Shown here in pieces: positions 1,531 through 62,771 of a DNA stretch of 64,000 nt. A program made the position numbers and the translations under genes. The notes under the pieces are model-generated. The model had not been told where the DNA came from and did not search any database. It saw only the letters and a program-made list of their open reading frames with translations. Where the stretch lies: assembly GCA_044237845.1 (NCBI GenBank), contig JBIIEL010000001.1, forward strand, positions 86,173 through 150,172, given 5' to 3'. This DNA is from Rickettsiales bacterium. GTDB taxonomy: Bacteria; Pseudomonadota; Alphaproteobacteria; Rickettsiales; UBA3002. Position 1 is the first letter of the stretch. Each line of letters starts with the position of its first letter.

Positions 1531-1558
1531 GTGAATGGTGAATGTTGAGTGGTGGGCG
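1531..1558. repeat. tandem heptanucleotide run GTGAATG GTGAATG TTGAGTG GTGGGCG
   Basis: Read directly. The run starts at the nucleotide next to the trmL start codon. It is the inverted partner of the run at 1601..1628. Confidence 0.85.
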
Positions 1559-1600
1559 GTAAGCAAGCTGTAACAGAAACAACGCGCTGTGCCAGTATCT

Positions 1601-1628
1601 ACTCACGACTCACCACTCACCACTCACC
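1601..1628. repeat. tandem heptanucleotide run ACTCACG ACTCACC ACTCACC ACTCACC
   Basis: Read directly. Its reverse complement (GGTGAGT)n can pair with 1531..1558 across a 42-nt spacer. It lies 68 nt upstream of petA. Confidence 0.85.
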
Positions 1629-1695
1629 CGTCTTGACACATCCCACTACCGCGAGTAGCAAAACGACAGCGAACATTTTTAAAGTAGAGGGTTCT

Positions 1696-2286
1696 ATGGG
1701 TTCCAATCACGCCTCGGGTGGACACCAACATCATGCCGGATGCAGTCATGGCGCTGCTGCTGCGCCCGCCACTCCGGCGGATCCCTCGCGCCGCGACTTC
1801 CTGACGCTGACCGCGCAGGCCATGGGTGCGGTGGGCGCAGGCGCGCTGCTCTGGCCGCTGGTCGACAGCATGAACCCCAGCGCGGACGTGTTGGCGCTGG
1901 CGAGCACGGAAGTCGACCTCACTCCAATTGCTGAGGGGCAGGAAATTAAAGTGATGTGGCGTGGCAAGCCGGTCTTCATCCGCAACCGCAGCCAGAAAAA
2001 TATCGACGAGGCGAACGCGGTGGATATCGCCACGCTGCGCGACCCGGAGACGGATGCTGCCCGCGTGAAAAAAGGCCATGAGCGCTGGCTGGTGATGGTG
2101 GGCGTGTGTACCCATCTGGGTTGCGTGCCGCTGGGCAATGGCGCCGGTGAGAATGACGGCTGGTTCTGCCCCTGCCACGGCTCGCATTATGATTCTGCCG
2201 GCCGCATCCGCAAAGGCCCGGCACCGAAAAACCTGGTTATCCCGCCCTACGAATTTGTGAGCGAGAGCAAGATTAAGATTGGATAA
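1696..2286 (+). CDS. petA: ubiquinol-cytochrome c reductase Rieske iron-sulfur subunit
   Basis: ORF 1549..2286 trimmed to ATG 1696, which has gtagaggg upstream. Tat-like RRDFLT. Rieske boxes CTHLGCVP and CPCHGSHYD. Confidence 0.9.
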
Positions 2287-2378
2287 GTCGTGACGGGTGA
2301 TAGGTGGCATGTGACAGGTAAAAAACGTTGCACATACCACAGGCCACCCGCCACATGGCACTAAAAACGGAGTTTTGA

Positions 2379-3818
2379 ATGGCACATGCACCCACTGAAG
2401 AAAAACCCGGCGTTGTTGGTTGGATCGAATATCGCCTGCCGATTTTTTCGGCGCTGAATAATGCGTTGGTGTCGTATCCCACGCCGCGGAATTTGAACTA
2501 TTGGTGGAATTTCGGCTCGATTGCTGGGCTGTGCCTGGTTGCGCAAATCCTCACCGGCCTGTTCCTCGCCATGCATTACGCGGCCAACACCGCCGTGGCG
2601 TTTGATTCGGTAGAACATATCATGCGCGACGTGAATTACGGCTGGCTCATCCGCTACATGCATGCGGTCGGCGCCTCCATGTTCTTCATCGCGGTCTATG
2701 TGCATCTCGCGCGCGGGCTGTATTACGGCTCCTATAAGCGTCCGCGTGAACTGCTGTGGTTCATCGGCGTGATCATTCTGCTCGTCATGATGGCCACCGC
2801 GTTCATGGGCTATGTGCTGCCATGGGGGCAAATGAGCTTCTGGGGCGCCACGGTGATTACCAACCTGTTCTCAGCCTTTCCGATTGTGGGTGAACCGATT
2901 GTAAGCTGGCTGTGGGGTGGTTTCTCGGTCGATAACCCGACGCTGAACCGCTTCTTTGCGCTGCATTTCCTGCTGCCATTCGTGCTGGTCGGCATCGTGA
3001 TGCTGCATCTCGTGGCGCTGCACCAGCATGGCTCCAGCAACCCGACCGGCATCGACGCCAAGGGCCCGCAGGATAAAATTCCGTTCCACCCGTATTACAC
3101 CAGCAAGGACTTCCTCGGTTTCGGCGTGTTCTTCCTCGTGTTCGCGGCATTTGTATTCTTCGCGCCGAACTATCTCGGCCACCCGGATAACTATCTGCCC
3201 GCCGATCCGCTGGTGACCCCCGCGCATATCGTGCCGGAATGGTACTTCCTGCCGTTCTACGCCATCCTGCGCGCGATTACGTTTGATATCCCGCTCTGGC
3301 TGGTCGGCTTTGCGGTGATCGGCCTCGGCCTGATGCTGCGCTATGTGGATGTGGCACGTGCCATGCTGCCGAAACTCATCGGTTCATTCCTGCCGAAAAA
3401 TGCCTGCAAACCTTCCTGCCTGTGGCTCGCGCTGACGGTCGGTGTGGTGCTGATCCTCGGCGGGTTGATGGGCGGCATGATTCCGAGCAAACTCGGCGGC
3501 GTACTCGCCATGTTCGGTGCGATTGGCGTGCTGTTCGCGCTGCCATGGCTCGATAGCTCGCCTGTGCGCAGCTCGGATTACCGCCCGATGTATAAATGGT
3601 TCTTCTGGCTGTTCGTGGTGAATGCCGTGGTACTTGGCTATTGCGGTAGCCAGCCTCCGGAAGGGATTTTCCCGATTCTCTCGCTGCTCTGCACCGGCTA
3701 TTATTTTGCGCATTTCCTGCTCGTGATGCCGCTGGTGGCGCGCCTCGAGAAGCCACTGCCACTGCCGACATCGATCACCGCGGCGGTGACGGCTAAGAAC
3801 GCTAACGCACATCACTAG
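2379..3818 (+). CDS. petB: cytochrome b
   Basis: 479-aa ORF with WNFGS, the heme-ligand His context and [13 protein letters not shown]. It follows petA directly. It contains an extra hydrophobic segment of about 68 aa (see findings). Confidence 0.95.
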
Positions 3819-3828
3819 GAGTCGCCCC

Positions 3829-4599
3829 ATGAAACTATTTTCTCGTATTTCCATGGTGGCGCTGATGCTGGTTGCAGGTGCCGCCGCCGCTGCGGGCGAC
3901 GCTCATGCGCCCAAGCTGAAACAGATGGACTGGCCGTTTGACGGCGTGTTTGGCAAAATGGATAAGCCCTCCGTGCAGCGCGGCTTGCAGGTCTATAAAG
4001 AAGTCTGTGCCTCGTGCCACAGCCTGAAGCGCGTGGCCTTCCGGTCGCTGCAAGATATTGGCTTGAGCGAGGCGGAAGTGGCGTCCTTCGCCGCGGGCTA
4101 CACGGTGCAGGACGGCCCGAACGATGCGGGCGAAATGTTCGATCGCCCCGGTCGTCCGTCGGATAAATTCCCGCGTCCCCATGCGAATGACAACGCGGCG
4201 CGTGCCGCCAATAATGGTGGGTTGCCGCCGGATCTCAGCCTCATCGTGAAGGCGCGCCCAGACGGGGCGAATTACCTCTATTCGCTGCTCACCGGCTATG
4301 GCCATACACCCCCAGAAGGCATGAGCGTGCCAGAGGGAACGCATTACAACCCGTATATGGCGGGCGGCATTATTAAAATGGCGCAACCGCTGAAGGACGA
4401 TACCGTTACCTATCAGGACGCCAACACCAAGGCGACTCTTGACCAACAGGCGAAGGACGTGGTGAACTTCCTGCAATGGGCCGCAGAACCGGAGATGGAA
4501 GCGCGCAAACGCATGGGCATCAAGGTCATGCTGTTCCTTGGCATCATGACGGGGTTCTTCTATGTGCTCAAAAAGCGCATCTGGAGCGACCTGCACTAG
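3829..4599 (+). CDS. petC: cytochrome c1
   Basis: Signal peptide, CASCHS heme-binding motif, C-terminal TM anchor. Third gene of the bc1 operon. Confidence 0.9.
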   Translation: MKLFSRISMVALMLVAGAAAAAGDAHAPKLKQMDWPFDGVFGKMDKPSVQRGLQVYKEVCASCHSLKRVAFRSLQDIGLSEAEVASFAAGYTVQDGPNDAGEMFDRPGRPSDKFPRPHANDNAARAANNGGLPPDLSLIVKARPDGANYLYSLLTGYGHTPPEGMSVPEGTHYNPYMAGGIIKMAQPLKDDTVTYQDANTKATLDQQAKDVVNFLQWAAEPEMEARKRMGIKVMLFLGIMTGFFYVLKKRIWSDLH

Positions 4600-4616
4600 T
4601 AGAGCCTGCGCATAGC

Positions 4617-4707
4617 GGACCATCTGCGTCGTCGGAACCTGTTTCGCAATGCTCACGTAGCGCTGCTACGCGGCGCTTGCAAAACAGAACCCTCCTAGCA
4701 TCTGGCC
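4617..4707. repeat. REP/MITE-like imperfect palindromic element, about 90 bp, copy 1
   Basis: Central hairpin CGTAGC-GCT-GCTACG at 4656..4670. It shares ATCTRCGTCGTC...ACGTAGCGCTGCTACGCG...CTCCTAGYATCT with the element at 14981..15081. It lies directly after the petC stop. Confidence 0.7.
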
Positions 4708-4758
4708 CACTCTTCGCACGCTTGGCAGGCGTGAAGAGAAAAAGAGAGAAGGTCGCTT

Positions 4759-5547
4759 ATGGAATTTCTATCTGCCGCATTTCTGGGAATCGTTGAGGGG
4801 TTGACGGAGTTTATTCCGGTTTCCTCGACCGGACATCTCATTCTGTTTGTGGACCTGCTCGGCTTTCAAGGCCCGCCCGGCCATGTGTTCGAGGTGGTGA
4901 TCCAGTTCGGGGCGATTCTTGCGATTTTAGTGTTATACTGGAAGAAGTTCTGGAATGTGCTGGTGACGCTACGGACGCAGCCTTCGCAGCGCTTTGTGGG
5001 GAATATTCTGCTCGCATTTCTGCCCGCGATGGTGATCGGTTTCTTCGTGCATGATTTTATCAAGGCGGCGCTGTTTAACCCCACGGTGGTGGCGTGGGCG
5101 CTGATTGCGGGCGGCATCGCGATTCTTGCGATCGAAAAATATAAACCCACGCCGACGGTGACGAGCACGGAAGAGATGCCCACGATGACTGCGCTCAAAA
5201 TCGGCTTTATTCAGTGCCTCTCGATGATTCCGGGCATGTCGCGCTCCGGCGCTACCATCATGGGCGCGCTGCTGCTCGGCGTGGAGCGCAAGGCGGCGGC
5301 GGAGTTTTCGTTCTTCCTCGCCGTGCCGACCATGTTCGCCGCCGGGGTCTATGACCTCTATAAAAGCGGCGCCCATATCGACGCCGCCGGGGCACAGCTG
5401 ATTGCGGTGGGGTTCATCGTGTCGTTCCTTGTCGCGCTGCTGGTGGTGCGCTGGCTGGTCGGCTTCGTGCAACGCAAGGGTTTCGGCCTGTTCGCGTGGT
5501 ATCGCATTGTTCTGGGTGGTATTATTCTCGGATTGCTCTATATCTAG
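4759..5547 (+). CDS. uppP: undecaprenyl-diphosphate phosphatase
   Basis: 262 aa. EGLTEFIPVSSTGHL and PGMSRSGATI motifs of BacA/UppP. Confidence 0.9.
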   Translation: MEFLSAAFLGIVEGLTEFIPVSSTGHLILFVDLLGFQGPPGHVFEVVIQFGAILAILVLYWKKFWNVLVTLRTQPSQRFVGNILLAFLPAMVIGFFVHDFIKAALFNPTVVAWALIAGGIAILAIEKYKPTPTVTSTEEMPTMTALKIGFIQCLSMIPGMSRSGATIMGALLLGVERKAAAEFSFFLAVPTMFAAGVYDLYKSGAHIDAAGAQLIAVGFIVSFLVALLVVRWLVGFVQRKGFGLFAWYRIVLGGIILGLLYI

Positions 5548-5565
5548 CGCAACAGGAGAAGTTTT

Positions 5566-6495
5566 ATGAAACCGATTGCCCGAATTTTTGCCATCCTCAC
5601 CCTTGCAGCGCTGCCGGCCTATGCGATGGATCAGGCGGCGGAACATACCGAGCATCTGCATCACAGTGCGCCGCCGATGGAAGGCAGCGCCAAGCGCAAC
5701 TACCATCAGCCGCTAGAGCTGGTGGAGGAGGTTGAGCCGCCGTCGGAAGATCATCCGGAGCCGGTGGAGCGCCTGCGCAACCGCTCGGTGAAGCTGGAGG
5801 CCGAAGTGCTGTCGACTGCGTTGCTTTCCGCCCGCAAGCCGACCGAAATCCGCTTCCGCCTGACCAATAACGGCAAGCCACTCACCGAAGAAGGGCTTGA
5901 AACTGTGCATACGAAGAAACTGCATGCGCTGATTGTCGACCCGACATTGACGGATTACCAGCATCTGCACCCCGAGGCGACGGATACGCCCGGCGAATAC
6001 CGCGTGATGCTGACGCCGAAAACCGACCGCAGCTACGCCATGTGGCTCGATCTCAAACCGCAATACGCACCACAGTCATATCTTAAGCTTGCGCTGCCGG
6101 GCATCAGCCAGGGCAAGGCGAAGGTTGACAAAAGCGCGCTGCGCGAAGCAACGGTGGGCGGCTATACCTTCACCCTAACCTTTGACGACGAAATCGTGAA
6201 AGAAAACGTGCCTGCGATGGGGCACCTCACGGTGACGGATAATGACGGTTCGCCCGTCGATCGCCTGCAGCCGGTGATGGGCGCGTTCGCGCATATCGTG
6301 GGCTTTTATGGCGACCGCAGCGGCGTCGCCCATATGCACCCGATGGGCGCCGAGCCGAGTGACGATGACGCGCGCGGCGGCCCCACGCTCGACTTCCATT
6401 TCGCCCCCAAGCGCAAAGGGTTTGTGAAGCTCTTCGCGCAGGTGAACATCGACGGCGAGGAGTTGTTCGTGCCGTTTGGGGTTGAGGTGAAGTAG
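5566..6495 (+). CDS. secreted hypothetical protein with two tandem His-rich domains (possible metal binding)
   Basis: Signal peptide MKPIARIFAILTLAALPAYA. There are two internally similar halves ending in HALIV..DYQHLHP and AHIVGF..GVAHMHPMG. Starts 18 nt after uppP. I do not recognise a family. Confidence 0.6.
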   Translation: MKPIARIFAILTLAALPAYAMDQAAEHTEHLHHSAPPMEGSAKRNYHQPLELVEEVEPPSEDHPEPVERLRNRSVKLEAEVLSTALLSARKPTEIRFRLTNNGKPLTEEGLETVHTKKLHALIVDPTLTDYQHLHPEATDTPGEYRVMLTPKTDRSYAMWLDLKPQYAPQSYLKLALPGISQGKAKVDKSALREATVGGYTFTLTFDDEIVKENVPAMGHLTVTDNDGSPVDRLQPVMGAFAHIVGFYGDRSGVAHMHPMGAEPSDDDARGGPTLDFHFAPKRKGFVKLFAQVNIDGEELFVPFGVEVK

Positions 6496-6522
6496 GCGTT
6501 TTCTCCCCTCACCCGGTGAGTA

Positions 6523-8070
6523 TTACCGCCGCTTCAGCAGTGCTTTCAGCGCCGCGAATTCATAGGCCTTGAGGGCCAGCACCGCCAGCCCATAGACCGC
6601 GATGCCGATGGTGATGACAGCAGTGAGCGCAAAGGCTTTGCTGAAAATATTTTCCTCGTAATAGCCCGCGAACAGCGGCTGGGCGACGAGCAGCGCTGCC
6701 ATCATGATACCAGTGGCGCCGAGCATTTTGATGAGGCGCGATTTCAGCGCGGCATCTGGCGTGAACAGGCTGCGCCTGTGCAGAATATACGCCATCAGCG
6801 CGAGGTTCACCCAGCCTGCAATAGAAGTGGCCAGCGCCATGCCGACATACTGCATATCCGCCACGAACACGAGCGCGAGGTTGAAAAATAAGTTCACCGC
6901 CACGCAGGTGACGGCGATTTTAAACGGCGTTTTGGTGTCGTGGTTGGCGAAAAACCCCGGCGCGAACACCTTCACCGCGAGGAATGCGGGCAGCCCCACG
7001 GCAAAGGCCATCAGCGTCGCTTTGGTGGCGAGCATGTTGGCATGCGTGAAGGCGCCATGCTGATAGAGCACGCGGATGATCGGCTCGGCAATCACCATCA
7101 GCGCCCCGGTGCAGGGGATGCCGATGAGCAGCACGATCTCAAGCGCGCGGTTGAGGCTATCCTTTGCCGCTTCCGCATTGCCGCTTTTGATTTGCTTACT
7201 CAGCATCGGCAGCAGCACGGTGCCCACGGCCACGCCAATCATGCCGATCGGCAGCTCGGTAATGCGATCCGCATAATAGAGATACGACACTGCATCCGGG
7301 ATATGACTCGCGATAATGACATCGATGAGCAGGTTGAGTTGCTGCACACCGGAGCCGAGCGCGGCAGGCGCCATCAGCAGTAACATGGTTTTGACGCTCT
7401 TTGTCAGGCGGGGAGCAACAAACGGCGGCAGCATGTCGTTGCGGGTGCAGATCATCACCAGCCAACCGAGCTGCACCATCCCTGCGATGAACACGCCATA
7501 GCTGAGTGCGTGGGCGGGGGTTTCGCTCCACTCGTTCAGGAACAGCATCGCCCCGATCATGCAGAGATTAAGCAGAATCGGGTTCGCGGCGGGCCCGGCG
7601 AATTTGCCCATGGAGTTGAGCACACCACCAAGCAGCGACACCAGCGAGATGAATAAAATATACGGGAAGGTGATTTGGCTCAGCACCACGGTGAGGTCGA
7701 ATTTCTCCGGCGTATCGGCGAATCCCGGCGCGAAGAACGGCGTGATCCACGGCATAAAGACAATGAACAGCGCGTTGAGCACCAGCAGCACCACGAGCAG
7801 CACGGCCATCACCTCGCCCGCGAAGCGTAGGGCGTCTTCGCGGCCACGCTCGGTGAGGATGCTTGAGAAACTGGGGATGAAGGCGGCGTTGAACGCGCCC
7901 TCGGCAAAGAGCCTGCGGAAGAAATTCGGCAGCTTGAAGGCGACAAAAAACGCGTCGGACAGCCAGCTCGCGCCAATGAGGTTGGCCATGAGAATGTCGC
8001 GCACAAAGCCCGTGATGCGCGAGAGTAGGGTGAAAAAGCCAATCGTGGCGGTAGATTTGACGAGTGACAT
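6523..8070 (-). CDS. murJ: lipid II flippase MurJ
   Basis: 515 aa. N-terminus TLLSRITGFVRDILMANLIGASWLSDAFFVAFKLPNFFRRLFAEGAFNAAFIP is typical MurJ/MviN. Polytopic membrane protein. Confidence 0.9.
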   Translation of the reverse strand: MSLVKSTATIGFFTLLSRITGFVRDILMANLIGASWLSDAFFVAFKLPNFFRRLFAEGAFNAAFIPSFSSILTERGREDALRFAGEVMAVLLVVLLVLNALFIVFMPWITPFFAPGFADTPEKFDLTVVLSQITFPYILFISLVSLLGGVLNSMGKFAGPAANPILLNLCMIGAMLFLNEWSETPAHALSYGVFIAGMVQLGWLVMICTRNDMLPPFVAPRLTKSVKTMLLLMAPAALGSGVQQLNLLIDVIIASHIPDAVSYLYYADRITELPIGMIGVAVGTVLLPMLSKQIKSGNAEAAKDSLNRALEIVLLIGIPCTGALMVIAEPIIRVLYQHGAFTHANMLATKATLMAFAVGLPAFLAVKVFAPGFFANHDTKTPFKIAVTCVAVNLFFNLALVFVADMQYVGMALATSIAGWVNLALMAYILHRRSLFTPDAALKSRLIKMLGATGIMMAALLVAQPLFAGYYEENIFSKAFALTAVITIGIAVYGLAVLALKAYEFAALKALLKRR

Positions 8071-10251: not shown

Positions 10252-11676
10252 TTGCCCATGCGCTATCCCCCTATTGTTCGGTTTTTTACCCCCGCTGCAA
10301 TCGGGCTGATGCTGCTGGCAGTCTATTTTTATCATGCGCAGAATCCGTCGCGCCCGCGTGACCTGCGCGCGGCGATTCCAGTCACGCAGTTCACACTCAA
10401 AAATGGTTTGCAGGTGGTGGTGATGGAGAATCACAACATCCCGATCGTGACGCATCTGATGCTAGTGAAAGCAGGCGGGGCGGATGATCCGCGCGGCAAA
10501 ACCGGCATGGCACATTATCTTGAACATCTCATGTTCACGGGCTCCAAAAATTATCCCGAAGGCACCTATGACCGCGCAATTGCACGCATTGGCGGCGAGC
10601 ATAACGCCTTCACCACCAAGGATTACACGCTCTATTATGCGACCATCGCGCGCGAGCATTTGCCGCAGGTGATGGCGATGGAGGCCGATCGTTTCGCAAG
10701 CCCGACCTTTGATGCCGCAAAAGCTGCGCGTGAGCTGAAGGTGATTACCGAAGAACGCAACATGCGGGTGGAGAATAATCCCGCCGCGCAGATGGCCGAG
10801 CAGCTCGATGCCATCACGTTTTTAAACCATCCGTATCAGCGGCCGAATATCGGCTGGGCGGAGGATATGGCGACCTTCACCCTCGCCGATGCGCAGGCGT
10901 TTTTTGCGGCGCATTACACCGCGCGCAACATGCTGCTGCTGGTGGCGGGGGATGTGACGGCGGCGGATGTAAAACGCGACGCCGAGAAATATTACGCCGC
11001 GCTGCCGAGCGGCATCGCCACCCCGCGCATCTGGCCGGAGGAGCCGCCGCTGCGCCTTGAGCGCCACGCGACGATGCATGATGCGAAGGTGCGCGAGCCC
11101 CGCCTCGTGCGGCAATATATCGCGCCGAGTGTGGTGAACGGCGCGCGCGATCAGGCGCTGCCGCTCTCGGTATTCGCGCAGTATCTCGGCGGCGGCGCGG
11201 GCAGTGTGCTTTACGAACAGTTGGTGGAAAAAGAGAAACTCGCGAGCAGTGTTTCGGCGAGCTATGACCCGTTTAGCATCGGCCCAGCGCTGTTCACGAT
11301 TCATGCCACGCCTGCTGCGAGGGTGACGCCCCAACAGCTCGAACACGCGCTCGACCGCGCGCTCGACGGAGTGAACACAGGCGCACCGGATGCGGCGGCG
11401 GTAATGCGCGCAAAAACACGCCTCAAAGCCGAGGTGATTTTCGCGCAGGATGGGCTGTCGTCGTTTGCCACCACCATCGCCGATCTTTATGCGCTGGGGC
11501 TGGATGAGCAGTATTTTTACGCCTGGCCGCATCTGGTGGAAGCGGTGACGCCGGCGCAGATGCAGGAAGCCGCCCGCATTGTGCTCGCGCCCTCGCGCCG
11601 GGTGACGGGCTATCTGCTGCCCGCGGAGACGCAAGCTGCGCCTACGCCAGCGATGGAGGTGACTCATGCGCCATAG
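10252..11676 (+). CDS. M16 (pitrilysin) family zinc peptidase, active-type subunit
   Basis: HYLEHLMF (HxxEH zinc motif). 474 aa. Confidence 0.85.
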   Translation: MPMRYPPIVRFFTPAAIGLMLLAVYFYHAQNPSRPRDLRAAIPVTQFTLKNGLQVVVMENHNIPIVTHLMLVKAGGADDPRGKTGMAHYLEHLMFTGSKNYPEGTYDRAIARIGGEHNAFTTKDYTLYYATIAREHLPQVMAMEADRFASPTFDAAKAARELKVITEERNMRVENNPAAQMAEQLDAITFLNHPYQRPNIGWAEDMATFTLADAQAFFAAHYTARNMLLLVAGDVTAADVKRDAEKYYAALPSGIATPRIWPEEPPLRLERHATMHDAKVREPRLVRQYIAPSVVNGARDQALPLSVFAQYLGGGAGSVLYEQLVEKEKLASSVSASYDPFSIGPALFTIHATPAARVTPQQLEHALDRALDGVNTGAPDAAAVMRAKTRLKAEVIFAQDGLSSFATTIADLYALGLDEQYFYAWPHLVEAVTPAQMQEAARIVLAPSRRVTGYLLPAETQAAPTPAMEVTHAP

Positions 11677-13033
11677 TCTTCTCGCTGCGCTTTCTGCGTT
11701 GGTGTGGCTTGGCTTTGCTGCCCCCGCGCAGGCCGCGATAGAGGTGAAAACAGCCAGCATCGGCCATGGGGTTGAGGCGTGGTATGCGACGAACAAAGCG
11801 GTGCCGGTGGTGGATGTGGTGCTGAGTTTCGAAGGCGCGGGCGCGGCGCATGATCCGGCAGAAAAGGGCGGACTTGCAGCGTTTTCGGCAGCCATGCTCG
11901 GCGAAGGCGCGGGTGCGATGAGTGCGCAGGATTTCGCACGCGCGCTCGATGAACACGCCATCACGCTCGACTTCCGCGCCGACGAAGACCGCCTCACCGT
12001 GCATGTGTATTGTTTGCGCGAACATGCGAAACGTGCAGGCGAATTGCTGGCGCTGGCCATCAGCAAACCGCCGCTGGCCGAAGCGGATAGGACGCGGGTG
12101 AAGGGACAGGTTGCCTCGCTGCTGACGCGGCTTTCCGAACGCCCGGGCTATCTCGCCGAGCGTTTGCTCGCCGCACGCGCCTTTGCAGGCCACCCCTATG
12201 CGAACCCGAATTATGGGACCGCAGCGAGTGTCGCCAGCTTGACAGATGCCGATGTGCGGCAGTTTCTTGCCACACGACTGACGCGGAAAAACCTGCTGAT
12301 CTCGGCGGCGGGGGATGTGGATTCTGCGCTGCTTGAGGAGATGTTGCAGCCGACGGTGGAGGCGCTCGCGGAGGGTGACGCGGCGGATTTCGCCCTCGCG
12401 CCCGCGACACTGCAAGGCGGCGGTGAACTGCTGCGCGCGCAAAAAGATGTACCGCAAACGGTGGTGCAATTTGCCGCGCCGGGCATCGCGCGCGACGATA
12501 AACGCTTCTACGCTGCTTATTTGCTCAACGAGATTTTAGGCGGCGGCAGCACGCTGGTTTCGCGCTTAGGCAACGAGCTGCGGCAGAAAAAAGGCCTGGT
12601 CTATGGCGTGCATACCGGGCTTGAGGCGCATCGCGTCGGTGCGATCCTCGGCGGTCAGCTCGCGACACGTAACAGCACGGCGGATGCCGCGCTCGCCGAG
12701 GTCAAACGCGTGCTGGCCGATATGCGCGAGCACGGGGTGACGGCGGAAGAATGCAGCGATGCCAAGGGCTATGTGCTCGGCCATTTTCCGCTGCAGATGG
12801 AAAGCGCGGGGGATGTTTCGCGCACGCTGATGATGATGCAGCGGCATCATCTCGGCGAGGCGTATCTCACCGAACGCGCGGAGCTGTTTAGCGCGGTGAG
12901 CTGTGCTGACATTAACGCCGTCGCGCGGGATTTGCTGGCGCCGGAGAAGTTCCTCTTCGCCGTCGTCGGCGGCACGGACGACAAGGGCGCACCAGCTCCC
13001 ACACAAGCCCCTGTGCATGGGGACGCGCGGTAG
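11666..13033 (+). CDS. M16 family peptidase, non-catalytic-type subunit
   Basis: 455 aa with a signal peptide. M16 fold-like sequence without HxxEH. Overlaps the preceding M16 gene by 11 nt. Confidence 0.8.
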   Translation: MRHSLLAALSALVWLGFAAPAQAAIEVKTASIGHGVEAWYATNKAVPVVDVVLSFEGAGAAHDPAEKGGLAAFSAAMLGEGAGAMSAQDFARALDEHAITLDFRADEDRLTVHVYCLREHAKRAGELLALAISKPPLAEADRTRVKGQVASLLTRLSERPGYLAERLLAARAFAGHPYANPNYGTAASVASLTDADVRQFLATRLTRKNLLISAAGDVDSALLEEMLQPTVEALAEGDAADFALAPATLQGGGELLRAQKDVPQTVVQFAAPGIARDDKRFYAAYLLNEILGGGSTLVSRLGNELRQKKGLVYGVHTGLEAHRVGAILGGQLATRNSTADAALAEVKRVLADMREHGVTAEECSDAKGYVLGHFPLQMESAGDVSRTLMMMQRHHLGEAYLTERAELFSAVSCADINAVARDLLAPEKFLFAVVGGTDDKGAPAPTQAPVHGDAR

Positions 13034-13095
13034 CATCTGTGATTAACGATGGATTCGCGCTTTCGCTCGTCTGCCGGTAGGGGTAGACTCACCCC

Positions 13096-14970: not shown

Positions 14971-14980
14971 TTGCTGCATG

Positions 14981-15081
14981 AAAATGGGCGATCTACGTCG
15001 TCCTCGTCGTGCTCGGTCAGTTACGTAGCGCTGCTACGCGCCTTCCCTGCGCGCGCCGACTCCTAGTATCTCACCCATTTT
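14981..15081. repeat. REP/MITE-like imperfect palindromic element, about 100 bp, copy 2
   Basis: Ends AAAATGGG...CCCATTTT. Central hairpin CGTAGC-GCT-GCTACG at 15024..15038. Lies directly after the mutL stop. Confidence 0.7.
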
Positions 15082-15097
15082 GACGCAGCGAAAAAGC

Positions 15098-15406
15098 CTA
15101 AAGAGGCGCAGATGACCTTTTTCTGTGTGTACGATTATAGCCGACCTGAGGTTCGTTTGACTTATTGGCCAGTATCAATTCGCTTTCTTTCCTAGTTACT
15201 TCATCTTTACTTTTTGACTCAAAAAGAATCTCTTTCCTGAGAGAGAAGCTTGATAACTCTTCCTTAGTAAAATCACTCTCTACTGTAGCGTTATCCCATG
15301 ATCCAAAATAGCGCATTGAGTGACCGCTTCCGCCAATATCTTTGCCGATGTAAATTTTGCCATTAGGGAACGTCAATTTATAAACGACATAGGCGAATTT
15401 TTTCAT
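15098..15406 (-). CDS. stand-alone GIY-YIG nuclease domain protein (I-TevI/Seg-like catalytic domain only)
   Basis: This is the AT-rich 3' part of ORF 15098..15679, starting at ATG 15406. It reads MKKFAYVVYKLTFPNGKIYIGKD...MRYFGS...RKESELILANKSNEPQVGYN. These parallel I-TevI blocks GIYQIKNTLNNKVYVGS, the Arg region, and ERENFWIKELNSKINGYN. 102 aa with no DNA-binding domain. Confidence 0.55.
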   Translation of the reverse strand: MKKFAYVVYKLTFPNGKIYIGKDIGGSGHSMRYFGSWDNATVESDFTKEELSSFSLRKEILFESKSKDEVTRKESELILANKSNEPQVGYNRTHRKRSSAPL

Positions 15407-15413
15407 AGTGATA

Positions 15414-26430: not shown

Positions 26431-26790
26431 TCAGGAAAACGCATTCGGTAGATGCTTCGGCCAGTGATACCACGCGATGAGGCAAACGTCGAACCGAACT
26501 TCACACTGGGCATATCGCGGGTGACTGGCGAGGTAGTGCTGTGCTGCGCGCACCACACGCGACTGGTTTTTGGCGTGGACGGCATGGGCGGCGTTGTCCG
26601 CATCCGCGCGGGCCTTCACCTCGACAAACACCAGCCGTCGACCGCGTTTCATAATCAGGTCGATCTCGCCCACCGGGGTTTTGTAGCGCATGGCGAGGGG
26701 GAAATAACCTTTGAGCATGAGGTAGAGAAGTGCCAGCCACTCCGCCACCAGACCGCTTCTGTGGCTGCGGCGATGTTTTTGGCTCGTCAT
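26431..26790 (-). CDS. yraN: YraN family endonuclease-like protein (UPF0102)
   Basis: 119 aa. GEIDLIMKRGRRLVFVEVKAR motif. Confidence 0.8.
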   Translation of the reverse strand: MTSQKHRRSHRSGLVAEWLALLYLMLKGYFPLAMRYKTPVGEIDLIMKRGRRLVFVEVKARADADNAAHAVHAKNQSRVVRAAQHYLASHPRYAQCEVRFDVCLIAWYHWPKHLPNAFS

Positions 26791-27630: not shown

Positions 27631-27661
27631 GTGAATGGTGAGGAGTGAGGAGTGAATAGTG
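27631..27661. repeat. tandem heptanucleotide run GTGAATG GTGAGGA GTGAGGA GTGAATA GTG
   Basis: Read directly. Lies 4 nt upstream of the rsmI start codon. The TCAC-containing strand is the rsmI sense strand. Confidence 0.85.
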
Positions 27662-27755
27662 CTAGTCGCTTGTTTGGCTTTCTTCAATTCCTCATTTCCA
27701 CTTCGTCGTGCAACATGGTATGGATCATGCAATGATCCGCGCATGTGAGGAACAA

Positions 27756-47553: not shown

Positions 47554-47676
47554 CCCGAGCCGCCGCGCATGCGCAGGGGGTGCGGGGGTGGCCCCCGCCT
47601 ATAATTTCCCTGTGGATAGTAATCTTCGCTTAACCTTTGCGGCGTACACTAAGCTTATCCACTAAGGGAGGATGCT

Positions 47677-56762: not shown

Positions 56763-58792
56763 TCAATTTAGAACGCCAATTTCCTCTAATACATATTGAA
56801 AAAGAAGCATGGAGCCATTAAATGACAGATGATCACCATTAGAATATAAGATATTCTTCTCCGTAATACTTGAACAGTAATGTGAATCGCAGAATATTTT
56901 CTTGGGATCAATTACCACTAGCCCAGAGAACTTCGTTGCAACCTCTCTAATTGCAGCGTCCGACAGCTACTGTTCTTCTAAAACTGCACTGAGGGGTATT
57001 CTCATTAGTTCATTCCGCTGCTCATGAGAGCGGCCAAGGCTCAATTGCTCAATTCGATTTAATCGCATTATCGGATTCCAGCCATTAGCAGGAACTCCGG
57101 CCACTATCACTACTTTATGGTTCAGCTCACGCAATGAACGCACTGTTTTCTCAAATGACTCTACCTGTTGCTTGTAGCGAACATTTATTGAAGTGTTTGA
57201 ATCGTAGGCCATAACATATTCATCGCGATGCTCAACCCCTCCGATGGTGTTATCGAAGCCCTTTCCATTTATATAAAGCGGAAACCTTGAATGCAGGATA
57301 ACAAAAGATGGGGGCAAAGAACTCAACAATTTCAGCCTCTGTGACTGATAGTCTGAGTTGCACCTATCGGAAGCTATGCCGTTAACGTAAGCAGTCATTC
57401 CCAATAAAAATGGACACCCACTTGCCGAAAGATCAACCAACTCAAACAGACCCTTACCGGCGAAATGGCTGGCAGCTTCAGTTAAAACACGCGCATGACT
57501 GTCGCCTGCAATAACCACTCGAATATCGGAAAAATGACTGCCTATTCTACACGCTTTTAATGGGTCTCTGTATGAGCACTCAACGCCGTCACGCACAATG
57601 CCACCAAACTCTTTGGGGGCCTCTCCCCCTTCGACCCAATGAATTTTTGCGGCACCACCGACTTTAAGATGCCCAAAAAGGCCGACCATAAAAAATGCCA
57701 TGCTACCAACGATCGCACAGAAGAATATCTGGTTGCGACTAAATCTACCTTTTGTTCGAAAAGGCCTCTCGACAAATCTCCACGAACAATACGCAAGAAT
57801 TATTGAGGAGATGCACATAATTATAAGAATTAGTGGGCTAGGCTCATCCAAACTAAGATGTCTTGCAAATACCAATAACGGCTGATGCCACAAGTATGCG
57901 CTGTAGCTAATCAGACCCATCCCAACAAACATCTTCGTCGCGAACACTTTCCCTACCCAAGTGTTCGGTGTTGCAAAGAGAATTAAAAGTGCCGCCCCTA
58001 ATGTGGGCACGAGTGCATAAAAGCTAGGAAAAGGCGTGGATTTGTTGAATGCAAAGATTGCGTAGAGAACCATAACAAGTCCAAGCAAGCTACCAAGCTG
58101 CGACTTCTTTTTACATAATTCATGATTTCTATGGCGTGAAAAGTAGAATGCTATGAGCGCACCAATCGCCAGCTCCCATCCGCGTGTTGGCAATAAGAAG
58201 AAAGCGGCCGCGGGCTTGTTGTATGCGCTCCAATGCGCAAGTCCTAAACTTACCAATGCGCAAGTCCTAAACTTACGAGTGCCAACATAATCAATATGGG
58301 CACTACCCATTGCTTTGCGTAACGCCACATAAACAATAGGAAAAGTGGAAAGAGAACGTAATATTGCTCTTCTACCGCCAAGCTCCAAGTATGCAACAAC
58401 GGTTTCAGTTCCGCAGCCGTATCAAAATAGCCGCTCTCCCGCCAAAACAAAATGTTCGACGCAAATGCGGAAACGGCAATAAGACTTTGAGAAAAGTCTT
58501 TCAGGTCGCTTGGCAGTAGCCATACCCACGCCAATGGGACACACACGGCCATTACGAGAAACAATGCGGGCAGTATACGTCTTGCGCGGCGCTCATAAAA
58601 GCGTAGTAGCGAGAAAGTGCCCGCGCTTTTTTCCAAGAGAATTATTGAGGTGATGAGATAGCCGCTAATCACAAAAAAAATATCCACGCCGACAAAGCCG
58701 CCGCTAAACGTATCGAATCCGGCATGAAAAAGGATTACGGGAAGCACTGCGAGAGCACGTAGTCCATCTATCTCACGTCTATAGGTAATCAT
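56763..58792 (-). pseudogene. acyltransferase-3 / SGNH (OafA-like O-acyltransferase) gene, disrupted twice
   Basis: ORFs 58250..58858 and 56967..58388 both encode ..ALVSLGLAHW. Removing one copy of the 23-bp duplication at 58231..58276 fuses them. After the TAG at 56969..56967 the same frame continues as LSDAAIREVATKFSGLVVIDPKKIFCDSHYCSSITEKNILYSNGDHLSFNGSMLLFQYVLEEIGVLN to the TGA at 56765..56763 (SGNH block V, DxxH). The region is AT-rich. Confidence 0.8.
58231..58276. repeat. perfect 23-bp tandem duplication (CAATGCGCAAGTCCTAAACTTAC x2)
   Basis: Read directly. The length is not a multiple of 3, so it shifts the frame of the acyltransferase gene. Confidence 0.95.
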
Positions 58793-58907
58793 GGCAACAA
58801 CGATTATGGGTGAGATCCGCGCAAGAAAAAGGCAGGGCACTCTACTTTCGTGCTGCATTTTGTCAAGAGCTTGCGCAAGAAAGCCCGCCGCTAAGCTGCT
58901 GGAACTA

Positions 58908-58941
58908 CTAGCCTCTGGCCTCTGGCCTCTAGCCTCTTGCG
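58908..58941. repeat. tandem heptanucleotide run CTAGCCT CTGGCCT CTGGCCT CTAGCCT CTTGCG
   Basis: Read directly. Intergenic, between the acyltransferase pseudogene and the histidine kinase gene. Confidence 0.85.
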
Positions 58942-58995: not shown

Positions 58996-59019
58996 CTGTG
59001 ATAGGCATAGTGGGAAACG

Positions 59020-60762
59020 ATGGAGAAGATCGACACAGAGGATATGGCGATTGCGCCCGAGGCGTTGCCCGGCGCGCGGGGGCGGTTGCCCAAAGCAAAA
59101 ACGCTGATCGCGTTCTCGGCGCTGATTATGCTGCTGTTTTGTGTGTTCGTGGCCTATCAGGCGAGCAAGGCTTATACCCGTGCGATCGACGACGGTAAGG
59201 AAAATGCCACGCGCCGGGCGCAAATTCTCGGCGACCAGATCGAGCTGTCGTTACTCTCGGTCGATCTCACGCTGCGGCGTGCGGTGGATCGGCAATATTT
59301 CAACACGATGTTCGGTGGCAATCTGCCGCACGATATTGAAAATAATTTCCGCCTCTGGGTGCAGGAAGCGCCGCAGATCGTGGCGCTGATGATGGTGAAC
59401 GCGCAGGGCGTGATCGAGGTGGCGGCGAATAACCCGGGCTATGACCAGTGGTATCGCTACACCGAGACCGCCATCAGCGACCCCGCTTTCACCGTGATGA
59501 AAGCCGACGATGCGCCGGATTTTTATGTCGGCCAGCATCGCACAAACATTCCCGGGCATCCGAAATTGTTGGTGATGAGCCGGCGCATTACCAAGCTCGA
59601 TGGCAGTTTCGGTGGGGTGGTGATTGCCGCTGTTGACCCACGCATTTTCATCGATTTCTTCGCCGCAATTGACCCACAGAAGGACCGCTATATGGCCCTG
59701 ATGCTGACGAGCGGCGATGTGCTTTATAGCGGCCCGCAGGATGAGAAAAATCACGACGCAGCGCTCGACTTTATCAGCGAAAAAGCGCGTGCCGCCACGC
59801 AGGATGATGCGGTGGTTGCCGACAGCAAAAATATCGATGGCGCGGTGGTGATTTACGCCTACGCCAAGCTCACGAAATTAGCGCTGGTCGGCGCGGTCGT
59901 GATCGATGAGGAGGATTTCCTCGGCGGGTGGCGCAAGGCGCGGGTGAAGGATATTTCCTTCCTCGCCATCTTCACGATTTTTGGTTCGGTGCTTTCCTAT
60001 TTTGCGCTCAACATGGCCAAGCAAATTGCGCGGGTGGAAAATTCCGAAGCGGCGGCGATACTGGCATCTCAAGCAAAATCCGAATTCCTTGCCAATATGA
60101 GTCACGAGCTGCGCACGCCGCTCAATGCGGTGATCGGTTTCTCGGAGATGCTCGGTGCGGGTTATTTCGGCGCGCTGAACGAGAAGCAGAAAGAGCGAAT
60201 TCAGGATATTAATCTCTGCGGAACGCATCTGCTGCAGCTGATTTCCGACATCCTCGAATTCAGTAAAGGCGAGGCGGGGAAACTCGAACTGCATGATGAG
60301 CCGCTTGAGGTGGCACAGTCGATCGAGGAGTCTCTGCGCATTGTGGGCGAGCGCGCGCGGGCGAAGCATATTGCGCTGGATAGCGAGATCGCTGCGGGTG
60401 TGTCGCTGCTGCGCGCCGATAAACGCAAGCTGCGGCAGATTTTGCTCAACCTGCTTTCTAACGCGATTAAATTTACGCCGGTCCATGGCACGGTGACGGT
60501 GAGCGCGCGGCTTGACCATCATGGCCAGATGGTGCTGTCGGTCACCGATACTGGCATCGGCATCGCGGAAGCGGATATCCCGAAGGCGCTCGCCGTGTTC
60601 GGGCAAGTGCACCGGAACCATAGCCACGAAGGCACCGGCCTCGGCCTGCCGCTGTGTAAGATGTTCACCGAGCTCCATGGCGGCAAACTGCAGCTCAGCA
60701 GTGAAGTGGGCGTGGGCACCACCGTGCGGATTATTTTCCCCGATAGCCGGGTAATTCGCTAA
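59020..60762 (+). CDS. sensor histidine kinase with a periplasmic sensor domain
   Basis: 580 aa with two TM segments flanking a loop of about 270 aa. H-box SHELRTPLNAVIGFSEML. N and G boxes LLSNAIKFT and GTGLGLPLCKMFTELHGG. Confidence 0.85.
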   Translation: MEKIDTEDMAIAPEALPGARGRLPKAKTLIAFSALIMLLFCVFVAYQASKAYTRAIDDGKENATRRAQILGDQIELSLLSVDLTLRRAVDRQYFNTMFGGNLPHDIENNFRLWVQEAPQIVALMMVNAQGVIEVAANNPGYDQWYRYTETAISDPAFTVMKADDAPDFYVGQHRTNIPGHPKLLVMSRRITKLDGSFGGVVIAAVDPRIFIDFFAAIDPQKDRYMALMLTSGDVLYSGPQDEKNHDAALDFISEKARAATQDDAVVADSKNIDGAVVIYAYAKLTKLALVGAVVIDEEDFLGGWRKARVKDISFLAIFTIFGSVLSYFALNMAKQIARVENSEAAAILASQAKSEFLANMSHELRTPLNAVIGFSEMLGAGYFGALNEKQKERIQDINLCGTHLLQLISDILEFSKGEAGKLELHDEPLEVAQSIEESLRIVGERARAKHIALDSEIAAGVSLLRADKRKLRQILLNLLSNAIKFTPVHGTVTVSARLDHHGQMVLSVTDTGIGIAEADIPKALAVFGQVHRNHSHEGTGLGLPLCKMFTELHGGKLQLSSEVGVGTTVRIIFPDSRVIR

Positions 60763-61676
60763 GCCGCTTCAGGTTTCGGCAGGGCTTTTGCGGCGGCGAG
60801 TTTGGCGGCTTCCATGACGAAATGGGTCATCTTCTCGAGCGCGCGGGCTTCGATCTGGCGGACGCGTTCGCGGCTGATATTGTAGCGCGCAGAAAGCGTT
60901 TCAAGCGTCGCCGGTTCCTCGACGAGCTGCCGCGCCTCGATGATCTCACGCTCGCGCTCGTTCAGGCTGGCGATGGCTTTCATCATCAGCGAGCGCTTCT
61001 GCATGAAGTCCTGATGCTCGCCGAGTTTTTCTTCGTGGCTTGCTTCCGGGTCGGCTAGGAAATCGCCGAATTCCGCGCTGCCATCCTCACCGTTCATGGG
61101 GGCGTTGAGATGCTGGTCATGCGCGCCCATGCGCATATCCATGTCGATCACGTCCTGCTCGTTTACGTTCAGCTCGGTGGCGATGGTACGAATTTCGTCC
61201 GGCGAGAGCGCCTTGCCGGAATCCACATCGCGCAGGCGCTTTTTCATTTTGGTGAGGTTGAAAAACAGGCGCTTCTGCGCGGCGCTGGAACCCATTTTGA
61301 CGAGTGACCAGGAACGCAACACGAATTCCTGAATCGCCGCGCGGATCCACCACATGGCGTAGGTCGAGAGGCGAAAGCCGCGCTCCGGCTCGAATTTCTT
61401 GACCGCCTGCATGAGGCCGAGATTGCCCTCGGCGATGAGCTCCGTCATCGGCAGGCCGTAGCCGCGATAGCCGGAGGCGATTTTGGCGACGAGGCGCAGA
61501 TGGCTGGTGACGAGTTTGTGCGCGGCCTCGTAATCGGCATATTCCGTCCAACGCTTGGCGAGCATATATTCCTCGTCGGCGTCGAGCATCGGGAATTTCT
61601 GGATTTCCTGCAAGTATGCGCGAAGGCCTGCGTCGGGCGAAATGCTGGGCAGTGCAAAGCTGCGGGTGGTTGCCAT
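60759..61676 (-). CDS. rpoH: RNA polymerase sigma-32 factor
   Basis: 305 aa. RpoH box AQKRLFFNLTKMK. Regions 2 and 4 are recognisable. Confidence 0.9.
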   Translation of the reverse strand: MATTRSFALPSISPDAGLRAYLQEIQKFPMLDADEEYMLAKRWTEYADYEAAHKLVTSHLRLVAKIASGYRGYGLPMTELIAEGNLGLMQAVKKFEPERGFRLSTYAMWWIRAAIQEFVLRSWSLVKMGSSAAQKRLFFNLTKMKKRLRDVDSGKALSPDEIRTIATELNVNEQDVIDMDMRMGAHDQHLNAPMNGEDGSAEFGDFLADPEASHEEKLGEHQDFMQKRSLMMKAIASLNEREREIIEARQLVEEPATLETLSARYNISRERVRQIEARALEKMTHFVMEAAKLAAAKALPKPEAA

Positions 61677-61716
61677 GGGGTTACCTTGCCGGGTTTTTTG
61701 TTTTTTATGTAGGGAA

Positions 61717-61745
61717 AAATTACCCCAAAACCCTTAATTTGTCAA
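61717..61745 (-). promoter_or_regulatory. sigma-70-type promoter TTGACA-N17-TAATTT for rpoH
   Basis: Sense strand reads CTTGACAaattaagggttttggggTAATTT. The -35 lies within the last codons of rluD. Confidence 0.45.
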
Positions 61746-62771
61746 GCTGGCCAGCGCGTTTTCCAGCGCGATCAGGTCATCCGGCAGGGGGCAGGTGAAC
61801 TCCATGAATTCGCCTGTGTTTGGGTGGGTGAGCACCAGCTCCTTCGCGTGTAGCGCTTGGCGGTTAAGCGCTTGAAGTGCTCCAGCAACTTCCTCCGGCA
61901 CCTGCGTGCCACCGGACTTTAAACGGTTGAGGCGCGTGGCGGTGCTGGCGCCATAGACCGGGTCGCCAATGATGGGGCATTTGGCATGCAGCAGATGCAC
62001 CCGGATCTGGTGCGTGCGTCCGGTATCGAGGTCGCAGATGACTTTGGTGGCGAGCGGGGTGATGGAGCCGGGGCAGCGAAACAGCGTTTCGGTGGTGTAG
62101 TGGGTGACGGACTCGCGCCCGCCTTCCACAATCGCCATTTGCTGACGATGGCGGCGATGCCGCGCAATCGGCGCGTCGATCGTGCCCTCGCGCGGGTTGA
62201 GCACGCCCCAGGCGAACGCCACATAGCGCCGCTTCATTTCTCGCGACTTTAGTTGGGCGGAGAGATGCTGATGCGCCGCGTCGTGCTTCGCAATCGCGAG
62301 CAGGCCGGACGTGTCTTTGTCGATGCGGTGAACGATGCCCGGGCGCGCGACGCCGCCAATGCCCGAGAGCGATGCGCCGCAATGGGCGAGCAGCGCGTGC
62401 ACCAGCGTGTCGCCATGCGTGCCCGCGGCCGGGTGCACCGTCATCCCCGCCGGTTTGTTGAGCACGATGATGTCGTCGTCCTCATAGACAATATCGAGCG
62501 CGATGGCAGAAGGGGTGAGGTCGAGCTGCTTGATTTCCGGAATGGTGAGGAGGAAGGTTTCCCCCGCGCGGACTTTGTGGGTGGCAGAAAGTCGCCAGTC
62601 TTTCGGCGCTTTTTCTTTCTGGAGACTGGAGACTGGAGACTGAAGACTGACCGCGCCTTCCTCGATCATCGCCTGAAGTCGCGCGCGGGAAATCTCCGGC
62701 AGCATGGCCGCCAGAAATTTATCCAGCCGGGTGCCGGCATGGTCTTCCGTCGCGGTGAGTGTGTGGGTCAT
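61734..62771 (-). CDS. rluD: 23S rRNA pseudouridine synthase, RluD-type
   Basis: S4 domain followed by HRIDKDTSGLL. 345 aa. Carries an in-frame heptamer run near the S4 domain. Confidence 0.9.
   Translation of the reverse strand: MTHTLTATEDHAGTRLDKFLAAMLPEISRARLQAMIEEGAVSLQSPVSSLQKEKAPKDWRLSATHKVRAGETFLLTIPEIKQLDLTPSAIALDIVYEDDDIIVLNKPAGMTVHPAAGTHGDTLVHALLAHCGASLSGIGGVARPGIVHRIDKDTSGLLAIAKHDAAHQHLSAQLKSREMKRRYVAFAWGVLNPREGTIDAPIARHRRHRQQMAIVEGGRESVTHYTTETLFRCPGSITPLATKVICDLDTGRTHQIRVHLLHAKCPIIGDPVYGASTATRLNRLKSGGTQVPEEVAGALQALNRQALHAKELVLTHPNTGEFMEFTCPLPDDLIALENALASLTN
62591..62650. repeat. heptamer element inside rluD: GTCGCCAGTC, 18-nt spacer, then (CTGGAGA)x3 CTGAAGA CTGACC
   Basis: Read directly. 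The short left arm pairs 10/11 with GACTGGAGACT. Translated as SLQSPVSSLQKEKAPKDWRL. Confidence 0.8.

Follow-up and report, generated by a model that had tools for sequence, protein, structure and literature searches.

What generates and keeps tandem arrays of a 7-nucleotide unit in and between the housekeeping genes of an alphaproteobacterium? The question is raised by a 64-kb stretch of DNA (64,000 nucleotides of contig JBIIEL010000001.1, hereafter called the window) from a lake-water (freshwater) metagenome, the host of which is an uncultured alphaproteobacterium with about 59% G+C. The host PurH shares 76% identity with its counterpart in the closest species-representative genome, an alphaproteobacterial metagenome-assembled genome (MAG), and about 55% with PurH of named genera; its nearest matches are MAGs of the Alphaproteobacteria, while the best counterparts of cytochrome b are those of Azospirillum and Tistrella. 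Using Tandem Repeats Finder (TRF) together with our own period scans across the window, we found nine arrays with a period of 7, each of 3.4–4.4 units, at eight loci. We consider it rather likely that they are heptanucleotide simple sequences of the same kind as short tandemly repeated repetitive (STRR) sequences and long simple sequence repeats (SSR), and we infer that slippage makes and homogenises them and that selection filters them.

Nine heptamer arrays in the window

An initial annotation, made from the sequence alone, had listed runs of heptamers, and TRF recovered every one of its coordinates. The nine arrays, with their loops and partner arms, are as follows.

1531–1554, minus strand: GTGAATG, 3.4 units (CATTCAC on the minus strand); C-rich arm ending 0 nt before the trmL ATG at 1530
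1555–1600, no strand assigned: 46-nt spacer (loop) between the inverted arms of trmL/petA
1601–1628, plus strand: ACTCACC, 4.0 units; inverted partner of 1531–1554, on the petA side
14361–14391, plus strand: CACCACT, 4.4 units; in frame in mutL, residues 422–432
15755–15785, minus strand: AGTCGCC, 4.4 units (ACTGGCG on the purH sense strand); purH residues 401–411
15786–15825, minus strand: loop of the purH hairpin, a 40-nt spacer coding for native PurH sequence
15826–15850, minus strand: CTGGTGA, 3.6 units (CCAGTCA on the purH sense strand); purH residues 379–387
27631–27655, minus strand: GTGAATG/GTGAGGA, about 3.6 units (TCACTCC/CATTCAC on the minus strand); ends 4 nt before the rsmI ATG at 27626
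27688–27704, plus strand: decayed inverted partner arm of the rsmI array, TTCCTCATTTCCACTTC, by direct reading
41474–41500, minus strand: GTGAATN, about 3.9 units (ATTCACN on the minus strand); ends 15–16 nt before the mnmC ATG at 41458
58908–58937, plus strand: GCCTCTG, 3.9 units, an outlier unit; between divergent genes
62590–62600, minus strand: partial inverted partner arm of the rluD array, GACTGGCGACT on the sense strand, coding for DWRL
62619–62649, minus strand: CTGGAGA, 4.4 units (CAGTCTC on the rluD sense strand); rluD, SLQSPVSSLQ, in the region of the S4 domain

With regard to the genes that host or adjoin the arrays, NCBIfam agrees with the assignments made previously: trmL (1054–1530, minus strand), petA (1696–2286, plus), mutL (13096–14970, plus), purH (15414–16985, minus), rsmI (26787–27626, minus), rluD (61734–62771, minus) and mnmC (minus, true start at 41458). 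The array at 58908 lies between a minus-strand gene (58250–58858) and a plus-strand histidine kinase gene (59020–60762). The units had also been described as related to each other, which holds for the seven of nine that match GGNGANT when the G-rich strand is read (ANTCNCC for the C-rich one), whereas GTGAGGA (27638) is a poorer match and GCCTCTG (58908) stands apart. The arrays display no replication-strand bias, the plus strand being G-rich in five and C-rich in four; the GC skew of this strand is positive over nearly the whole window. Scans of the window for tRNA genes and Rfam families returned nothing, and a plasmid search gave a match to a conserved gene and nothing else.

Metagenome assemblies are the kind of source in which repeats are prone to mis-assembly, and short runs may also cluster by chance. 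However, exact runs of about three copies with period 7 numbered six in the window, against 0.01 in 200 dinucleotide shuffles, and no such runs were present at periods 5, 6 or 8–12. When the criterion was relaxed to at least 12 of 14 matches (100 shuffles), nine arrays were found at period 7, compared with a shuffle mean of 0.23 and a maximum of 1; period 6 was at expectation (3 versus 2.8) and period 5 was depleted. The earlier claim of a non-random repeat family is thus well founded. Moreover, the density of 141 arrays per Mb in the window compares with 4.6 per Mb (seven arrays) elsewhere, as determined in 1.53 Mb from 80 purH loci of other genomes. An independent Logan contig of the source run matches positions 13000–16107 with zero differences, the mutL array is reproduced without gaps in a second sample (X2), and the rluD array is identical in a strain of about 93% identity (X4). 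With two assemblers and two samples giving the same arrays, reading frames unbroken and orthologous arrays present in independent genomes (see below), an origin by chance or assembly artefact is excluded.

The window also contains repeats and genes of other kinds. Two tandem duplications do not have a period of 7, one of 21–22 nt x2 inside the large NAD-glutamate dehydrogenase gene (23419–23460) and one of 24 nt x2.2 inside rsmI (27331–27382). A perfect direct repeat of 23 nt x2, CCAATGCGCAAGTCCTAAACTTA, is located at 58230–58276, where the ORFs (open reading frames) 56967–58388 and 58250–58858 join, in the part of the window that is lowest in G+C (0.52). Three tandem paralogous small genes (29067–30200, minus strand) lie within a stretch of lower G+C; they have a signal-peptide-like start (MKNITKVIALT...) followed by a lysine-rich tail containing repeats, and the T-rich repeats of period 9, 10, 21 and 27 reported by TRF fall here. 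Divergent from mnmC is an ORF of 658 residues (41589–43565, plus strand) with good codon bias and no match in NCBIfam.

Inverted pairs, start codons and array-encoded peptides

The arrays at 1531–1554 and 1601–1628 (trmL/petA) form an inverted pair with 46 nt between the arms, and those at 15755–15785 and 15826–15850 (purH) a second one with 40 nt, a hairpin architecture that had been overlooked in the earlier reading of the window. On the minus strand the trmL/petA pair is predicted to fold with −46.1 kcal/mol (z −4.8). The purH pair gives an uninterrupted 29-bp stem of −75.1 kcal/mol on the plus strand (z −8.9), and a hairpin of −54.4 kcal/mol with a mismatch at every seventh pair on the sense strand. 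The fold of the rsmI region on the plus strand reaches z −2.2. At rluD the partner arm lies within a 12-residue insertion of RluD, with an A-rich loop of 18 nt between it and the array. The window thus holds two clear pairs (trmL/petA and purH) and two decayed ones (rsmI and rluD), the arrays in mutL, upstream of mnmC and at 58908 being unpaired. An antisense RNA in purH was also considered from the asymmetry of G.U and A.C pairs, and was rejected as the asymmetry is inconsistent across species.

Direct reading confirmed that three arrays end 0, 4 and 16 nt before the starts of trmL, rsmI and mnmC, respectively, and that these starts lack a Shine-Dalgarno motif, as GGAG, GAGG and AGGA are all absent upstream on the sense strand. 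In each case the C-rich arm adjoins the start codon, the G-rich strand thereby lying antisense within 50 bp upstream of the ORF. It had also been stated that, in all five loci of the GTGA class, the strand containing TCAC is the sense strand of the neighbouring or host gene. Inside genes this rule says little: a run of three units passes through all seven codon phases and there is a TGA on the GTGA strand, so that the orientation is forced by stop codons. Stop-free arrays upstream of start codons could also mislead gene callers.

Each of the four intergenic regions that carry arrays is a divergent promoter region (p about 0.03 by length). On the petA side, the array 1601–1628 is located 4 nt upstream of a TTGACA box (1633–1638, by direct reading) and 67 nt upstream of the petA ATG (1696). 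Since it lies upstream of this conserved box, the array is probably outside the petA leader. A promoter and terminator scan of positions 1400–1800 returned nothing. The decayed arm near rsmI precedes a GTG (27708) by 3 nt and an ATG (27720) by 15 nt, both belonging to the next plus-strand gene. RNA runs contained just 6–7% of the sampled words. A role in translation is a plausible candidate function for the leader copies. Other explanations of the units were rejected because each matches some of them only: CcrM GANTC sites, heptamers resembling recombination signal sequences, triplets recognised by primase and, for the trmL/petA spacer, a sigma-54 box.

Four of the nine arrays (44%) are in frame inside housekeeping genes, and the period is strictly 7 there too, where 7 is least convenient. 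The in-frame translations given earlier, with three units making 21 nt and including SLQSPVSSLQ, are correct. In PurH, HQSPVTS is an exact insertion of seven residues (21 nt, three units) relative to 16 orthologues. The second purH array adds a net two residues, and the spacer between the two arrays still codes for native PurH sequence; the total net gain is 8–9 residues and not about 32. An AlphaFold2 model of PurH (64 homologues) has a mean pLDDT (predicted local distance difference test) of 89 and falls below 50 only at residues 381–383 and 403–406, both within array-encoded peptides; as modelled, the two peptides occupy the sole low-confidence loop of the protein. The mutL array encodes the end of a disordered interdomain linker, right before the conserved YPLGAAVAQL, and the rluD array adjoins the 12-residue insertion, which is relative to E. 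coli RluD. The exact insertion and the low-pLDDT segments in PurH, together with the linker end in MutL, bear out the earlier suggestion that arrays are tolerated in frame within housekeeping proteins and their linkers, and we infer that the in-gene copies are tolerated passengers.

A unit that is not a multiple of three, in arrays placed within ORFs and promoters, is also the classical layout of phase-variable genes, and slippage by 7 nt could in principle switch genes by frameshift or by a change in promoter spacing. Contingency loci of this type are nevertheless hardly credible here. The hosts purH, mutL and rluD are single-copy housekeeping genes for which knock-outs would be costly, the arrays are short (3–4 units), and all assemblies seen keep the reading frame, including those with orthologous arrays in relatives.

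Turnover among relatives and distribution beyond the lineage

The clade of uncultured Alphaproteobacteria with PurH proteins 65–88% identical to that of the window varies in PurH length from 512 to 604 residues. Many of the extra segments resemble translated heptamer arrays, and they fall at five recurrent sites. Peptides and units match as follows: HQSPVTS corresponds to (CACCAGT)3, DSRLTTH to (GACTCAC)3 and TGDWRLA to (ACTGGCG)3. The heptamer origin of these segments was established at the DNA level for the loci L082, L270 and L271, and was deduced from the peptide for the other homologues. In the DNA of four species (the window, L270, L271 and L082), a purH hairpin of the form [CAGTCNC]n, native spacer, [ACTGGCG]n occupies the same site. 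It is patchily distributed over the PurH tree and is absent from the nearest relatives (P0002, P0003 and P0004). An AATCCCC array is present in purH of L271.

The syntenic relative GCA_964530085.1 (81% PurH identity) has kept the trmL/petA pair at the same positions (locus L275), with the G-arm adjoining the conserved GTGTCAAGA (complement of TTGACA) and the C-arm abutting the trmL ATG. The GGTGAGT and GGTGAAT variants are found on opposite arms in the two genomes, and the spacer of the relative, compared by eye, is partly alignable to that of the window in the same orientation. In mutL of this relative (locus L081), an array of the same length is located at the same site with an unrelated unit (GGAACCT versus CCACTCA in the window); the purH pair is absent. 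In three relatives with YchF proteins 88–90% identical, no arrays were found in 63 kb. In X4, as judged from assembled contigs only, three of four array regions are unalignable though their flanks align, the fourth being that of the identical rluD array; here the spacer beside the partner arm has indels with a net change of −9 nt. The loci obtained via YchF homologues are non-syntenic with the regions upstream of rsmI and mnmC, and the orthologue comparisons exclude these two arrays.

Orthologous loci, the comparison of which had been proposed with the initial annotation, thus differ both in the presence of arrays and in their units. The comparisons with GCA_964530085.1 and with the YchF relatives indicate, at the sequence level, that array sites persist and their units turn over between related genomes, and that array density within the clade is a property of the particular lineage. 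Among the other differences between these genomes is a Fic/MazE-like antitoxin gene pair that occurs in differing places in L081 (20564–21205) and L274 (13319–13954) and is missing where synteny would place it in the window.

The family had initially been regarded as lineage-specific. This view cannot be upheld, as three copies of TCACCAS were also found in more than 120 metagenome contigs (30–72% G+C) and in 67 IMG/VR contigs; going by these matches, the heptamer class of the window is not unique to its lineage. Loci bearing TCACCAS contain a further 224–278 period-7 arrays per Mb, many with differing units. Adjacent pairs in the metagenome and viral loci were inverted in 41 cases and direct in 15, and the G-rich arm came first in 36 of the inverted ones. 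We then have a clear polarity in 289 intergenic-like arrays from 187 metagenome and viral loci: counting ORFs with 100 codons or more, an ATG lay within 30 nt downstream in 47 cases for the C-rich strand versus nine for the G-rich strand. In about half of those cases the distance from C-arm to ATG was 8 nt or less, therefore without room for a Shine-Dalgarno motif. Conversely, a stop codon preceded the G-rich strand 71 times versus 34. The order shared by these contigs is stop codon, G-arm, C-arm, ATG. A phage-like IMG/VR contig (L261) has the succession of stop codon, (GGGTTCA)n, loop, (CTGAACC)n, 5 nt and ATG between co-directional genes.

With regard to this contig itself, which has 68% G+C, we counted 14 heptamer arrays over 13 kb, the majority of them in (GGGTTCA)n/(CTGAACC)n hairpins filling the intergenic gaps (positions 1–7400). 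It had no match in a phage database.

A second dispersed repeat family was also noticed in the window and its relatives. It is G+C-rich, about 75–80 nt long and of the form GCGTAGCCTCC..GAGCC...GGGGGTGATACCCCC, with a short GGGGG/CCCCC hairpin. In the window it occurs at 14194–14273 (mutL linker), at 40600–40670 and 40938–41000 (inside mnmC), and at 47150–47200 and 47540–47600. In relatives it lies in frame in housekeeping genes, in purH of L081 (about 10800–10900) and trmL of L275, and encodes peptides such as CVASHGEPLAEGVS..GVIPPS in PurH and TrmL; a further copy is found elsewhere in the source metagenome. This family behaves like Rickettsia palindromic elements. Such elements reportedly are in-frame selfish DNA in protein-coding genes, as Ogata et al. 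are said to have described in 2000.

The heptamer arrays do resemble Rickettsia palindromic, REP (repetitive extragenic palindromic) and REPIN (REP-derived hairpin) sequences in being small hairpin repeats tolerated in frame in surface regions of conserved housekeeping proteins, where both behave as passengers. They could accordingly be seen as footprints or copies of a mobile element of the REPIN, Rickettsia-palindromic or MITE (miniature inverted-repeat transposable element) type that has heptamer terminal inverted repeats and inserts in frame. The pairs span 96–98 nt, which is a REPIN-like size, A-rich loops are common, arrays occur in viral contigs, and very similar peptide modules (HQSPVVS-KEK..-DSRLTTH) are found at different PurH sites in relatives, twice in P0056. 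The second family moreover shows that a genuine in-frame dispersed palindromic element exists in the clade. We nevertheless regard a mobile-element origin as quite improbable. The known elements have a dispersed consensus of 100–150 nt that is mobilised whole, whereas the loci of the window share a 7-nt motif over native sequence, and the proposal fails because the purH spacer is native, as reflected in the small net gain of residues, and a shared consensus is missing. Spacers showed no evident similarity between loci on inspection, a formal alignment not having been made, and target-site duplications were not evident. The units vary from locus to locus, some arrays stand alone without a partner (mutL, mnmC and 58908), and among the ORFs of the window that were annotated there is neither a transposase nor a RAYT gene.

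Known heptamer systems, proposed slippage and a candidate role at start codons

The initial annotation had stated that heptamer repeats are known from heterocystous cyanobacteria and had been aware of no equivalent in Alphaproteobacteria. The latter part stands, as we found no such report in the literature. Heptamer arrays have also been described in Xanthomonas, Burkholderia, Geobacter and Beggiatoaceae (PMC4692102, PMC4679880, PMC2700814). The window is the first clear alphaproteobacterial case of STRR-kind heptamer arrays that we have come across.

In Xanthomonas, Rehm et al. (2015) reported 183–186 GGGAATC arrays per genome (X. campestris and X. citri) with four units preferred, 70–75 close convergent (inverted) pairs able to form stem-loops, and a G-rich strand that is antisense less than 50 bp upstream of ORFs and sense just after stops (PMC4692102). 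The window is alike in coming from a high-G+C proteobacterium, in having about four units and inverted pairs, and in the matching polarity of the G-strand, which the 187 metagenome and viral loci share. It differs in that its unit has no G3 tract, that all its intergenic arrays lie between divergent genes and that 44% of its arrays are coding.

Nostoc and Anabaena have GGGGA(C/T)T arrays (PMC4692102), and Nostoc heptamers overlap start codons and, at recF/recO, affect reporter output (bioRxiv 10.1101/2022.06.06.494920). The cyanobacterial arrays and those of the window alike consist of 7-nt units repeated in tandem at numerous loci, most of which are intergenic and close to starts, and Nostoc AGTCCCC/AATCCCC is one base from the AGTCACC, AGTCGCC, AGTCTCC, ACTCACC and ATTCACC of the window. 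The phylum is different, however, four of the nine arrays are in frame here, and inverted pairs are frequent here and few in Nostoc. The strict cyanobacterial STRR units are CCCCAGT, TTGGTCA and CAACAGT, and their hosts are heterocystous. The STRR1 unit CCCCAGT, which Mazel et al. reportedly described in 1990, is one base from a window unit. Taken strictly, the arrays fall outside this class, their units being one or two bases off and their host an alphaproteobacterium. Nor does the G-quadruplex reading of Nostoc carry over, because the window units have GG and not GGGG; a G-quadruplex takes four tracts of at least three G, and with GG at most a three-tetrad quadruplex is impossible.

Geobacter metallireducens contains 49 copies of a four-heptamer element (GGACCGG x4), in and between genes, as well as MTYCTGA x5, without an assigned function (Aklujkar et al. 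2009, PMC2700814). There a longer, BLAST-alignable element is conserved around the heptamers, whereas here the heptamer motif alone is shared between loci. TAACTGA direct repeats of 2–6 units occur upstream of starts in marine Beggiatoaceae, some cyanobacteria and Bacteroidetes, and binding of S1 or cold-shock protein with translational control was proposed for them (MacGregor 2015, PMC4679880). They resemble the window arrays in lying directly upstream of starts and in being patchy across phyla, and their rotated reverse complement (AGTTATC) is an AT-rich counterpart of AGTCACC. In contrast to the window, a single unit prevails in the genome there, and few repeats are inverted (one indirect repeat).

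According to the slippage reading that we favour, the arrays typically have about four GGNGANT units and often come as two inverted ones 12–150 nt apart, which could form a DNA or RNA hairpin of 20–30 bp. Slipped-strand replication in a 7-nt register would create, resize and homogenise the arrays, and exchange between inverted arms would keep the arms alike. Judging by E. coli, MutS/MutL repair probably does not extend to loops as long as 7 nt. Inside genes, arrays would survive when they are stop-free in all seven phases, change length by a multiple of three and fall in linkers or in loops at the surface. In intergenic regions, it is the C-rich arm that would settle beside the start codon, with the G-rich one at the distal end, and leader copies may additionally shape translation initiation without a Shine-Dalgarno motif. 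The narrow copy number (3.4–4.4) and the strict period of 7 argue for slippage. It should be underlined that several points weigh against this reading. Slippage alone leaves the period of 7, the limit of about four units and the motif shared across the genome unexplained, three features that suggest a reader acting in trans or a process of fixed size. In the assembled contigs, to which the comparison was confined, copy-number polymorphism was not directly observed. The trmL/petA placement kept in the 81% relative could reflect function rather than mere persistence, and gradual concerted evolution does not easily account for a mutL unit that was exchanged completely while the array kept its length.

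Several of these points lead to the possibility that the intergenic arrays are functional cis-elements, with the module of stop codon, G-arm, loop, C-arm and ATG controlling expression and the in-gene copies being spill-over. We hold this to be possible but somewhat doubtful, and it is compatible with an origin by slippage. In one variant, an OB-fold protein (ribosomal S1 or a cold-shock protein) would bind the C/A-rich leader with about one heptamer per domain, replacing the Shine-Dalgarno interaction; in another, the hairpin would hide the start codon for as long as it stays closed (translational coupling) or would be processed by RNase III. Consistent with such functions, all three start-proximal arrays are at genes without a Shine-Dalgarno motif, the polarity is strong (47 versus 9) with about half of the distances at 8 nt or less, and the full module in the phage-like contig ends 5 nt before the ATG. 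The trmL/petA architecture is retained in the 81% relative, the array-bearing intergenic regions are without exception divergent promoters, and the preference for four units and the shared motif suit a protein reader. The proposals for S1 and cold-shock proteins (PMC4679880) and the reporter effects in Nostoc (bioRxiv 10.1101/2022.06.06.494920) point in the same direction. On the other hand, units differ at orthologous sites, and the close relatives without arrays in 63 kb give no indication of an essential role. The arm on the petA side precedes the likely −35 box and is not in a leader, and the polarity could equally result from selection against G-rich arms near starts, where they would be Shine-Dalgarno-like or contain GTG/TGA.

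A broader and more speculative proposal, which we consider unlikely though worth stating, is that the arrays are the cis-part of a conserved candidate heptamer-reading system common to cyanobacteria, Xanthomonas, this clade and phages. If this were true, a multi-domain OB-fold protein or an RNase would read about four GGNGANT/ANTCNCC units, and the module running from stop codon to ATG would be a general alternative to the Shine-Dalgarno motif or an intercistronic processing site. Array-rich and array-poor sisters would then differ by the presence of the candidate factor, and in-gene hairpins such as that at the same purH site in four species would be either spill-over or regulated sites.

Whichever process makes them, the arrays put peptides with a period of seven residues into housekeeping proteins. 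Heptamer arrays have long been noticed and left unexplained, and this clade offers array-rich and array-poor genomes that are closely related, arrays within conserved genes, whose gains and losses are exactly datable by orthologue alignment, and conserved array sites with turned-over units. The origin of the 7-nt register and the selection behind the polarity of G-arm and C-arm at start codons therefore become addressable.

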